Shown here in pieces: positions 50,191 through 53,921 of a stretch of DNA of 64,000 nt. The stretch lies in the NCBI RefSeq assembly GCF_056746865.1, contig NZ_CM163382.1; one strand, written 5' to 3'. The position numbers and the translations under genes are program-made. Every line of letters starts with the position of its first letter. The first letter of the stretch is position 1. The notes under the pieces are model-generated. The model saw only the letters and a list, made by a program, of their open reading frames with translations, did not search any database and had not been told where the DNA came from.

Positions 50191-50826
50191 CTTGCCAGCA
50201 GACTGTCAAGATGTATTAAACAGGTCGATTAGCTGTAGGCGGGATAGCTCGCGGGATAAATCATCTGAGAATGTGCCATTTTCCGGGCTGTTATGGGGGA
50301 CAGGCATTGCTGGTTGTTGGTTCGTTGATGGAGGGAAAGCTGCAGCACAGATAATGGGGCTTTAGGAAAAGGAAAGACATAATAACCACGACAAAGTGAC
50401 TATCAAAGTGGGCCAAGGACATTTGAATGTTTGAGATAATAAATATTGTAATGAAGCTGAGGCTATTGCTACCACCACACACTACAGAACCTGCACCATT
50501 GGATGCCAAGAACAACTGTCCGAATACATAGAAATGCTCAGATAAAAGTGTTTATGTCTCATCCGGCATGAAAACGATGAGCACATTATCTACAATCCAC
50601 AGGCCCTCCTATTTTCCCGCTTATACATTCCCCATCTTCCATTTTTCCTCACCCGCGCCGGCACCACACTGTCATCTTTCTGAGGTTTTACTGTCTTACA
50701 CATGTAATAAAAAGTTATTTTTCTGCAATTCGGGCATGATAGTAAGCGTAAACTGACCGCCGTATGTAGCCATCAGACGAGAATTGGTAACTTAGACGCC
50801 CATCTGATATAGACGGACATCTAAGT

Positions 50827-51252
50827 ATGGAATTACAGGACTGGCGAAAAGAACCTCGTAAAAACTATTCGAATGAATTCAAACTTCGTATGGTGGAACT
50901 GGCATCACAACCTGGAGCTTGTGTTGCACAGATTGCACGTGAAAATGGCGTCAATGATAATGTTATTTTCAAATGGCTCAGGCTCTGGCAGAACGAAGGG
51001 CGTGTTTCGCGGCGTCTTCCGGTAACGACCTCTTCTGACACTGGCGTTGAATTATTACCTGTAGAAATAACGCCGGATGAGCAGAAAGAACCTGTGGCGG
51101 CCATTGCGCCGTCTTTATCCACTTCCACTCAGACCAGAGTCAGTGCCAGTTCCTGCAAGGTGGAATTCCGTCACGGTAACATGACGCTGGAAAATCCATC
51201 GCCAGAGCTGCTCACAGTGTTGATCCGTGAACTGACCGGGAGGGGAAGATGA
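50827..51252 (+). CDS. IS66-family TnpA (orf1)
   Basis: 141 aa helix-turn-helix protein. Confidence 0.8.
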   Translation: MELQDWRKEPRKNYSNEFKLRMVELASQPGACVAQIARENGVNDNVIFKWLRLWQNEGRVSRRLPVTTSSDTGVELLPVEITPDEQKEPVAAIAPSLSTSTQTRVSASSCKVEFRHGNMTLENPSPELLTVLIRELTGRGR

Positions 51253-51599
51253 TCTCACTCCCATCAGGTACCCGTATCTGGCTCGTTGCCGGCGTTACCG
51301 ATATGCGTAAATCCTTCAACGGACTGGGAGAACAGGTACAACATGTGCTGAATGATAATCCCTTCTCCGGTCACCTGTTTATCTTCCGTGGCCGACGGGG
51401 TGACACCGTCAAAATTCTTTGGGCTGATGCTGATGGTCTGTGCCTGTTCACCAAACGCCTGGAGGAAGGCCAGTTTATCTGGCCTGCGGTACGTGACGGC
51501 AAGGTATCCATTACCCGCTCGCAACTGGCAATGCTCCTCGATAAGCTGGACTGGCGTCAGCCAAAAACATCCAGCCGTAACTCACTGACAATGTTGTAA
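51249..51599 (+). CDS. IS66-family TnpB
   Basis: 116 aa MISLPSGTRIWLVAGVTDMRKSFNGL... Confidence 0.85.
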   Translation: MISLPSGTRIWLVAGVTDMRKSFNGLGEQVQHVLNDNPFSGHLFIFRGRRGDTVKILWADADGLCLFTKRLEEGQFIWPAVRDGKVSITRSQLAMLLDKLDWRQPKTSSRNSLTML

Positions 51600-51629
51600 A
51601 AAACTCCTGACCGCATTATAAAAACGGTC

Positions 51630-53243
51630 ATGAGTCAGAAATACCTCATTCGCATCGCAGAGCTGGAAAGGTTGCTCTCTGAGCAGGCTGAAGCCCTCCG
51701 TCAGAAAGACCAGCAACTGAGTCTGGTTGAAGAGACGGAAGCCTTCCTGCGCTCTGCACTGACACGTGCCGAAGAAAAGATCGAAGAAGATGAACGGGAA
51801 ATAGAACATCTGCGGGCTCAGATAGAAAAACTGCGCCGGATGCTGTTCGGTACCCGTTCTGAAAAACTGCGTCGTGAAGTTGAACTGGCTGAGGCTCTGC
51901 TGAAACAACGTGAACAGGACAGCGATCGTTACAGTGGGCGGGAAGACGATCCTCAGGTTCCCCGCCAGTTGCGACAGTCGCGCCATCGTCGTCCGTTACC
52001 GGCACACCTTCCCCGTGAAATACACCGCCTGGAGCCAGAAGAAAGCTGTTGCCCGGAGTGTGGCGGTGAGCTGGATTATCTGGGGGAAGTCAGCGCTGAA
52101 CAGCTGGAACTGGTGAGCAGTGCCCTGAAAGTGATCCGCACAGAACGGGTAAAAAAAGCCTGTACAAAATGTGACTGTATTGTTGAAGCACCGGCGCCGT
52201 CCCGCCCGATAGAGCGTGGTATCGCGGGCCCCGGATTACTTGCCCGCGTGTTAACGGGAAAATACTGCGAACATCTGCCACTGTATCGTCAGAGTGAAAT
52301 CTTTGCCCGCCAGGGTGTCGAACTGAGCCGGGCCTTACTCTCCAACTGGGTTGACGCGTGCTGCCAGTTAATGACACCGGTGAATGATGCCCTGTACCGT
52401 TATGTAATGAACACCCGCAAGGTTCACACTGATGACACACCGGTAAAGGTACTGGCACCGGGTCAGAAAAAGGCGAAAACAGGGCGTATCTGGACGTATG
52501 TCCGGGATGATCGCAATGTGGGTTCGTCATCTCCTCCAGCGGTCTGGTTCGCGTACTCGCCGAACCGGCAGGGGAAACACCCGGAGCAACACCTCCGCCC
52601 CTTCCGGGGTATCCTGCAGGCGGATGCGTTCACAGGTTACGACAGGTTGTTCAGTGCAGAACGTGAAGGTGGTGCACTGACAGAAGTTGCGTGCTGGGCC
52701 CATGCCCGGCGAAAAATCCACGATGTATACATCAGCAGCAAAAGTGCGACGGCAGAAGAAGCCCTGAAGCGAATCAGTGAACTGTACGCCATCGAGGATG
52801 AAATACGGGGATTACCGGAGTCAGAGCGTCTTGCCGTCAGGCAGCAGCGAAGCAAAGTGTTACTGACGTCGCTGCATGAATGGATGGTGGAGAAGAATGG
52901 TACGCTGTCGAAAAAATCCAGACTGGGCGAAGCGTTCAGCTATGTACTGAATCAGTGGGATGCCCTCTGTTATTACAGTGATGACGGTCTGGCGGAGGCG
53001 GATAATAATGCTGCGGAAAGAGCGCTTCGTGCAGTCTGTCTCGGAAAGAAAAACTTTATGTTCTTTGGCAGCGATCACGGCGGCGAGCGTGGAGCACTGT
53101 TGTACGGGCTGATCGGCACCTGCCGTCTGAACGGTATCGATCCGGAAGCGTATCTGCGCCATATCCTGAGCGTACTGCCGGAATGGCCTTCCAACCGAGT
53201 TGACGAACTCCTGCCATGGAACGTAGTACTCACCAATAAATAA
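51630..53243 (+). CDS. IS66-family transposase TnpC
   Basis: 537 aa; CCPECGGEL zinc motif; DDE core. Confidence 0.85.
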   Translation: MSQKYLIRIAELERLLSEQAEALRQKDQQLSLVEETEAFLRSALTRAEEKIEEDEREIEHLRAQIEKLRRMLFGTRSEKLRREVELAEALLKQREQDSDRYSGREDDPQVPRQLRQSRHRRPLPAHLPREIHRLEPEESCCPECGGELDYLGEVSAEQLELVSSALKVIRTERVKKACTKCDCIVEAPAPSRPIERGIAGPGLLARVLTGKYCEHLPLYRQSEIFARQGVELSRALLSNWVDACCQLMTPVNDALYRYVMNTRKVHTDDTPVKVLAPGQKKAKTGRIWTYVRDDRNVGSSSPPAVWFAYSPNRQGKHPEQHLRPFRGILQADAFTGYDRLFSAEREGGALTEVACWAHARRKIHDVYISSKSATAEEALKRISELYAIEDEIRGLPESERLAVRQQRSKVLLTSLHEWMVEKNGTLSKKSRLGEAFSYVLNQWDALCYYSDDGLAEADNNAAERALRAVCLGKKNFMFFGSDHGGERGALLYGLIGTCRLNGIDPEAYLRHILSVLPEWPSNRVDELLPWNVVLTNK

Positions 53244-53346
53244 GCGTCAATACGGTGCTCCGTTGACGCTTACGCATGATATGTAATCCCGCGAGCATAA
53301 AACGAGTGAATTTGCACATCAGGTACAACAAGCAAGAGAGATAAAC

Positions 53347-53921
53347 GATGAAACCGTTACATTATACAGCTTCATCACTGGTGCTCGGACTGGCGTTAAT
53401 GGGCAATGCACAGGCAGTGACGACCATTCCGTTTTGGAACTCTATGGAAGGGGAAATGGGCAAAGAGGTGGATACAACTGGAAAACTTTAGCGCCAGGAA
53501 CGGTCTGCCGTTTGCCAGCAAAAACAACGGTTTTGACGCCACGGACGCGGTGCTGGAGTTCAACAAGCCGGAGCAGGTGAAACACATCGTCATGCTCGAG
53601 GAGATGAACAAGAAGGGCGACTTCATCTACGTCGGGCGTAAGGATGAATCCACCGAGAAGTTCTATAGAGGTGATTGCGCGATGACCACCGCCTCTTCCG
53701 GTTCTCTTGCCAACATTCGCGAGTACGCCAAATTCAACTACGGCGTAGGCATGATGCCTTACGACGCTGACGCGAAAGATGCACCACAAAACGCCATTAT
53801 CGGCGGAGCCAGCCTGTGGGTGATGCAGGGCAAAGATAAAGAAACGTATACCGGCGCAGGCGAAAAGCTGGCGGTAGGGGAATCATCGGATCTTTCTGCT
53901 CATCCGGCGTTATCTCCATAG
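53347..53921 (+). pseudogene. ugpB: sn-glycerol-3-phosphate-binding protein UgpB with internal deletion and 3' truncation
   Basis: N-terminus [41 protein letters not shown] then stop; ORF 53550-53921 resumes at ...[24 protein letters not shown] (mid-protein); homology lost after TYTG. Confidence 0.6.

Follow-up and report, generated by a model that had tools for sequence, protein, structure and literature searches.

When an insertion sequence (IS) lies directly in front of a broken gene, did the element break the gene, or did it enter a locus that was already dead? This question is raised by a stretch of 64,000 nucleotides from NCBI RefSeq assembly GCF_056746865.1 (contig NZ_CM163382.1; hereafter the window, meaning the whole stretch analysed, with positions counted from its first letter), in which a copy of ISEc23, an element of the IS66 family, lies between a Pho-box array and the start codon of ugpB, and in which ugpB itself is internally deleted and has lost its 3' end. 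A preliminary description, made from the letters of the window, had read this arrangement as inactivation of ugpB by the element followed by decay, as in host-restricted lineages. Here we report that the order is the reverse: ugpB decayed first, and ISEc23 came last.

Order of events at the ugpB locus

The element occupies positions 50742-53273 and is bordered on either side by the 8-bp sequence GCATGATA (left copy 50734-50741, right copy 53274-53281). Joining both flanks with a single GCATGATA gave an empty-site query of 916 bp, which was searched in all complete E. coli genomes. The empty site was present in approximately 47 chromosomes at an identity of at least 99 %; the 40 empty-site matches listed all span the full 916 bp unbroken, 39 of them at 100 % and one at 99.9 %. 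Because the site carrying one GCATGATA occurs at 100 % identity, the two copies in the window are no chance repeat but a target-site duplication, as the preliminary description had recognized. Furthermore, the 916 bp of the empty site contain both the ugpB deletion and the junction with an IS66 remnant, according to the annotations and alignments of two loci (L003 and L005). Since the same deletion and truncation stand at unoccupied sites, the decay of ugpB predates the ISEc23 insertion.

The insertion is recent, as the IS copy has not diverged at all from copies at unrelated sites (see below) and as the exact insertion of the window is shared by no complete E. coli genome searched. The pseudogene in the window, by contrast, has accumulated lineage-specific substitutions amounting to about 3 %.

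The opposite order would have an IS66-family insertion knock out the chromosomal ugpB, with the later decay being part of the genome reduction that a host-restricted lineage (Shigella, for example) undergoes. The element does separate the Pho boxes from the ATG, the gene is decayed, and IS-driven pseudogenization is well documented in Shigella (bioRxiv 10.1101/680777). However, this scenario is confronted with the same decayed ugpB standing without any IS in the approximately 47 genomes and with the disparity between the unchanged IS copy and a pseudogene that has diverged along its own lineage. Moreover, the locus resides in an accessory island instead of between livF and ugpA, and the native ugpBAECQ operon, counted over 5.1 kb at a coverage of at least 80 % and an identity of at least 95 %, is found in 5421 of 5426 complete E. 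coli genomes. The preliminary description had named a second intact ugpB as what would refute it, and by this census such a gene is present in related genomes; nothing points to host restriction either, given that the island occurs in varied hosts, namely avian, human, swine and environmental E. coli. We therefore regard inactivation by the element followed by decay as extremely improbable.

The inserted element

From the reading of the sequence and the list of open reading frames (ORFs), the element is a complete, plus-strand ISEc23 copy of 2532 bp. An intact IS66-family element had already been proposed at this place, with a right end at 53274; it ends instead at 53273. Its terminal inverted repeats, left (IRL, 50742-50765) and right (IRR, 53250-53273), are imperfect, agreeing at 20 of 24 positions, and both ends open with GTAAGCGT, of the GTAAGCG type. 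Three genes, all of them open, follow each other on the plus strand: tnpA (50827-51252), encoding a helix-turn-helix (HTH) accessory protein of 141 aa (Pfam HTH_Tnp_1, E = 5e-12); tnpB (51249-51599), which overlaps tnpA by ATGA and encodes an IS66 Orf2-type accessory protein of 116 aa (TnpB_IS66, E = 1e-36); and tnpC (51630-53243), encoding the DDE transposase of 537 aa with the domains LZ_Tnp_IS66, zf-IS66, DDE_Tnp_IS66 (E = 9e-98) and DDE_Tnp_IS66_C. All of these Pfam matches exceed the gathering cut-offs, and the order tnpA-tnpB-tnpC, the GTAAGCG-type inverted repeats and the 8-bp duplication are those of the IS66 family.

The element is also abundant. A megablast search of plasmids and of complete E. 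coli genomes returned hundreds of copies with at least 99 % identity, and comparison with 12 fetched copies at unrelated sites revealed zero differences across 2532 bp. The exact TnpC protein is recorded in 14,723 blocks of the assembly collection, and perfect 8-bp duplications border eight of nine unselected ISEc23 copies. The name ISEc23 is based on PGAP, which labels the transposase of identical copies on E. coli plasmids and chromosomes as 'IS66-like element ISEc23 family transposase'. Thus, the element is an intact and currently circulating ISEc23. Multiple copies of ISEc23 have been reported in ST131 and O104:H4 (bioRxiv 10.1101/680777), and the element is present on pEC958 (PMC4398462).

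The decayed ugpB copy

The remains of ugpB were delimited by BLAST coordinates and by a three-way alignment of the window, K-12 ugpB (L007) and an intact island copy (L004) described further below. On the plus strand, a 5' fragment (53348-53473) retains codons 1-42 including the signal peptide; it starts with the ATG at 53348, and its frame runs into a stop codon at 53489-53491. At the end of this fragment lies the deletion junction, where one TGGAT of a 5-bp direct repeat is left (53469-53473, plus strand): 461 bp, equivalent to nt 127-587 of the coding sequence (CDS), are missing exactly between the two TGGAT copies, and the deletion is out of frame. The internal deletion had been noted before, with 38 codons taken as retained instead of 42. 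Beyond the junction, a middle fragment (53474-53860, plus strand; CDS nt 588 to approximately 970) still matches Pfam SBP_bac_8, out of frame with the start; it is 95.5 % identical to K-12 and 94.9 % identical to the intact island copy.

Homology to ugpB stops at 53857-53864, at about CDS nt 970 of 1317, so that the last approximately 350 bp are gone. As previously suggested, the 3' end has been replaced by a fragment of another IS66-family element, an inverted tnpA remnant that meets ugpB at this joint. This remnant of a different element (53861-54486, minus strand) comprises an IRL-like end (GTAACCGTCTC...) at about 54484 and two-thirds of tnpA, counted from its 5' end, and is fused to the truncated ugpB. 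Compared with ISEc23 and inverted relative to it, the remnant has 71 % aa identity with TnpA residues 11-97 and 90 % nt identity across 180 bp; in the PGAP annotation it appears as 'IS66-like element accessory protein TnpA, frameshifted; internal stop'. As both partners are internally truncated, the joint between ugpB and tnpA is a rearrangement or deletion scar and no simple insertion.

In total, the window copy keeps codons 1-42 and approximately 196-323, out of frame with each other, and falls short of a full-length UgpB; judged by these retained parts, it is a UgpB pseudogene. A search for a further ugpB copy within the window found none. The substitutions that are specific to each lineage, counted in the retained coding parts, fit this assignment: the window copy has 14, distributed over codon positions 1, 2 and 3 as 3/5/6, which is a neutral pattern, whereas the intact island ugpB has 10 (0/1/9) and K-12 ugpB 12 (1/1/10), both as under purifying selection.

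The stretch downstream of ugpB has collected further elements in another strain. In strain 1517k, the IS66-family remnant is split by nested IS66-family elements (ISEc8-like and ISCro1; L002 15855-21005, corresponding to window ~54268-54275) with an 8-bp overlap at the joint of the nest, and IS66-family elements accumulate in this remnant stretch.

Promoter and leader

Upstream of the element, the window retains a Pho-box array (50669-50708, plus strand) of four CTGTCAT-like 7-bp half-sites at 11-bp spacing, CTGTCAT-cttt-CTGAGGT-ttta-CTGTCTT-acac-ATGTAAT, which aligns column for column with the Pho boxes of K-12 ugpB. The preliminary description was right in placing the element between such repeats and the ugpB start; the array lies at these coordinates instead of around 50660-50700, and the ATG at 53348 instead of 53347. 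We defined a Pho box as two CTGTCAT-like direct repeats of 7 bp, 4 bp apart and located 5' of a -10 hexamer (consensus from PMC4447250), and the pattern matches at 50669-50686 and at 50691-50708 with three mismatches each. Across the window, matches with at most three mismatches are no more frequent than expected by chance (6 versus 6.2), so the case for these Pho boxes rests on homology; a generic sigma-70 promoter scan did not detect the Pho promoter. By this homology, PhoB would be expected to bind the array. In the review PMC4415409, a passage citing Kasahara et al. 1991 assigns multiple PHO boxes to the downstream ugp promoter.

The probable -10 hexamer of the Pho-dependent promoter is TGCAAT at 50724-50729 on the plus strand (TGTAAT in K-12), as suggested by its place after the last Pho box and its conservation in the alignment with K-12. 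Relative to this promoter, ISEc23 is located approximately 5 bp past the predicted transcription start and 74 bp 5' of the ugpB ATG. The rest of the 5' leader including the ribosome-binding site (53282-53347, plus strand), recognized when aligned with K-12 and the intact island ugpB, now lies on the far side of the element.

Genomic context

Which ugpB, then, did the element enter? In K-12, the native ugpBAECQ operon sits between livF and ggt; the window fragment has no livF upstream and no ugpA downstream. Co-linear regions from five annotated genomes place it in an accessory island instead. On the upstream side this island contains iha, remnants of an integrating conjugative element, many IS fragments, an intact phoX and two frameshifted genes of an ABC transporter, and on the downstream side the IS66 remnant, a ProQ/FinO-family gene, a PerC-family regulator gene, a single-stranded DNA-binding protein (SSB) gene and more IS elements. 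The island-bearing genomes have two or three ugpB-homologous places each. Among the 5426 complete E. coli genomes, to which the genome of the window itself does not belong, the best matches to the window are mosaics drawn from different strains. In addition, the window copy is 84.6 % identical to K-12 upstream of the gene and 95.5 % within it (middle fragment), as opposed to at least 95 % among native E. coli loci. Taken by its neighbourhood and divergence, the window ugpB is best described as an orphan paralogue in a mosaic, IS-riddled island and no native locus.

The genes directly upstream appear to have been acquired together with it. The PhoX-family phosphatase gene (46890-48869, plus strand) is intact, encodes 659 aa with a Pfam PhoX match, is annotated in the co-linear loci L001-L004 and forms the first gene of a duplicated PhoX-ABC-ugpB module. 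It is followed by two frameshifted pseudogenes for the permease and the ATPase of an ABC transporter (48966-50189, plus strand), identified from the PGAP annotation of the co-linear loci and represented in the window by broken ORFs only.

Other cargo of the island includes a TonB-dependent siderophore receptor (35-1846, cut by the start of the window), a sitABCD-like Mn/Fe ABC transporter (4436-7906, minus strand) and an extra Cu-Zn superoxide dismutase gene, sodC (11268-11792), with ISL3, IS110 and IS256 fragments scattered among these genes. A perfect inverted repeat of 603 bp (an IS remnant; 13123-13725 and 45521-46123) bounds a segment of 31.8 kb, whose orientation relative to the phoX-ugpB side differs from that in strain CM2, which suggests an inversion via recombination between the repeats. 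A second perfect inverted repeat, of 1704 bp, is found at 55999-57702 and 60145-61848; in the co-linear region of CM2, these repeats correspond to two frameshifted IS3-family copies around the IS21-like ISEc12 (istA/istB).

An intact island paralogue and gene conversion

A further, intact ugpB occurs within the island in some strains. In EC6563 and other strains, the same segment of phoX and ABC-transporter pseudogenes is followed by a full-length orphan ugpB (WP_072643672.1). Its product of 438 aa coincides with K-12 UgpB in 426 of the 439 positions aligned (the stop codon being counted); with the NCBIfam UgpB equivalog PRK10974, whose cut-off is 411, it reaches a score of 932 bits. On its 3' side follow genes for a phytase-like protein, an RpiR regulator, a PTS transporter and NanE, and none of ugpA, ugpE, ugpC and ugpQ. 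An nt identity to K-12 of approximately 92 % suggests that the donor of the island ugpB would have been another Escherichia lineage.

The flanks of the element align to the ugpB promoter, as the preliminary description had assumed, at 84.6 % to K-12 and, if four substitutions are set aside, at 100 % to this island paralogue. The window and the intact copy do not differ at all in the 450 nt upstream and in CDS nt 1-86, and the four substitutions follow at CDS nt 87-114. With a 5' part identical to the island copy and a middle part that differs by about 5 % from both the island copy and K-12, the two halves of the window gene have different histories.

One way to account for such halves is that the apparent deletion is in fact a joint at which recombination united two ugpB alleles, with the 5' part deriving from the island copy and the middle from another source, and the nearly identical 5' part together with the almost equidistant middle fragment (94.9 % to the island copy, 95.5 % to K-12) would agree with this. 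Yet the junction falls exactly at TGGAT, a motif present at both positions in K-12 ugpB and thus the signature of a slippage deletion; the intact island ugpB has TGAAT, not TGGAT, at the position of the 5' repeat. Besides, the four substitutions immediately before the joint are those of the divergent lineage to which the middle fragment belongs, and in CM2 precisely these four positions have been overwritten by the intact copy, so that the uneven divergence can be traced to gene conversion of the 5' side. A joint of two alleles is therefore very unlikely in our view, and we retain the slippage-type deletion within one divergent copy.

CM2 is informative in this respect because it harbours both an intact and a decayed ugpB, approximately 50 kb apart and inverted to each other (L030, CP158308.1 885849-903165, and L005, CP158308.1 824958-856900, matching window 45521-53473), with 99.8 % identity over 5.4 kb up to the deletion point. 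Its decayed copy has the bases of the intact copy at CDS nt 87, 91, 109 and 114 and has kept the deletion. To judge from these positions, the pattern is that of a gene-conversion tract, running from the intact into the decayed copy and ending approximately 10 nt before the heterology of the deletion. Gene conversion is likewise the likely reason why the 5' sides of decayed and intact copies are identical.

Recurrent ISEc23 insertions

The promoter region of this island module has been hit more than once. In strain 1517k, a variant of ISEc23 (L002 12344-14854; 2511 bp, with tnpC shorter by an in-frame 21 bp and approximately 20 single-nucleotide polymorphisms (SNPs)) is inserted 1 bp to the right of the window site, in the same orientation and with a perfect duplication, CATGATAT. 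Since the element is a variant, has its own duplication and sits 1 bp off, this insertion is independent. A third, likewise independent copy, in strain VTB97420v (L001 12001-14532, corresponding to window 50233-50240), lies approximately 500 bp upstream, again in the same orientation, with the duplication CTGTAGGC.

A sequence-specific target motif of ISEc23 was considered and rejected. The first five plasmid copies inspected had GCATGATA-like duplications, one of them exactly CATGATAT, but these copies had been ranked by the length of the match into the flanks and thus formed a biased sample. The duplications of unselected copies (TTAACAAG, GTAAGTCC, GGCTCAAG, CAGATACG, CTTTCTCC, TATAATGG, CAATAGTC, TCAGTGGC, TTATTTAC and others) have no consensus. 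A scan of genome contigs with the 30-nt left end of ISEc23 gave four loci, too few for a species-wide sample of sites.

Could the insertion nevertheless be other than neutral, the promoter being a preferred or selected target from which Pho-dependent transcription reads into tnpA-tnpB-tnpC, rendering transposition inducible by phosphate starvation? The independent variant 1 bp away in 1517k, with its own perfect duplication and the same orientation, speaks for such a preference, as does the equally oriented copy in VTB97420v; likewise, the IS, whose tnpA has the same strand as the promoter, starts approximately 5 bp past the predicted transcription start. On the other hand, the unselected duplications show no sequence preference, dead island DNA tolerates insertions so that recurrence may reflect a lack of counter-selection, and three of three insertions in one orientation are expected by chance with p = 0.25. 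Folding of the predicted read-through leader (50736-50850) revealed nothing beyond shuffled controls (z = -0.53), which leaves this leader without notable structure. Altogether, we consider a selected or phosphate-responsive insertion unlikely. That the start of the Pho-box promoter may be a true local hotspot of ISEc23, its target set by the shape of the DNA or by a protein attached to it (PhoB or H-NS, for instance), is a thought we entertain with considerable doubt. If the hotspot were real, transposase genes under phosphate-starvation control would be its by-product. The near-coincidence of the two sites may be of some interest for the target choice of IS66 elements, as ISEc23-type elements struck almost the same base pair twice and independently.

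Discussion

Our study suggests the following course of events. The island would first have captured a phosphate-scavenging module consisting of phoX, the pair of ABC-transporter pseudogenes and, under a Pho-box promoter of its own, an orphan ugpB. A slippage-type deletion of 461 bp between the TGGAT repeats would then have shifted the frame of ugpB, and a rearrangement would have joined the gene, at about CDS nt 970, to the interior of an IS66-family tnpA. The dead remnant drifted neutrally thereafter, until, much later, an active ISEc23 transposed into the locus and produced the 8-bp duplication. We are highly confident of this account as a whole, that is, an island paralogue that decayed first, ISEc23 as the last arrival, and no loss of function caused by it.

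Several points weigh against parts of this account. A 5' side that is 100 % identical to the intact copy, next to a difference of about 5 % elsewhere in the gene, would not be expected from a single duplication followed by decay; gene conversion is invoked to explain this uneven divergence, and CM2 is the one strain that displays it. The positions of the -10 hexamer and of the transcription start are predictions taken from the alignment. Finally, that the window's own genome keeps the native ugpBAECQ operon or an intact island copy is presumed from the near-universality of the operon.

What did the insertion change? As no function remained in the window ugpB, the insertion had no loss-of-function effect. 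Glycerol-3-phosphate uptake should likewise be unaffected, with UgpB supplied by the native operon and, in some strains, also by the intact island copy. Neither the element nor this type of event is new, and the case is one of routine annotation, a further copy of a common IS in the junk DNA of a pathogenicity-type island, probably without consequence. It nonetheless carries two cautions: finding an IS beside a broken gene is no proof that the gene was broken by it, and the name ugpB on a fragment does not make that fragment the housekeeping locus. For the evolution of the island, the case is of use in that the PhoX-ugpB module is duplicated and conversion between its intact and decayed copies is visible.

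Comparison with known systems

In gene layout, Pfam domains, inverted repeats, 8-bp duplication and length, the window element is as known for ISEc23, and only its insertion site is new. Relatives of ISEc23 within the IS66 family include ISEc8 and ISCro1; IS679 is a further one. The K-12 ugpBAECQ operon, which has Pho-box (PhoB) and CRP promoters, is homologous to the window copy in its Pho-box array, leader, signal peptide and coding sequence, but the island module captured ugpB with its promoter only, without ugpA, ugpE, ugpC and ugpQ, stands beside phoX and is non-functional. Closer still is the intact island ugpB, which shares with the window 5.2 kb of upstream sequence (99.8-99.9 %), the promoter and the first 86 nt of the gene. 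The intact copy, however, is full length, has evolved under purifying selection and is followed by the phytase-like gene, in contrast to the window copy, which has suffered a deletion and a truncation, evolves neutrally, has an IS66 remnant on its 3' side and has now been hit by ISEc23. The arrangement is also reminiscent of IS-mediated pseudogene formation as in Shigella and further host-restricted lineages, where an IS in the promoter is likewise found beside a decayed gene. Here, by contrast, the IS came after the death of the gene, the gene was a redundant accessory paralogue, and the native operon has been kept across E. coli.

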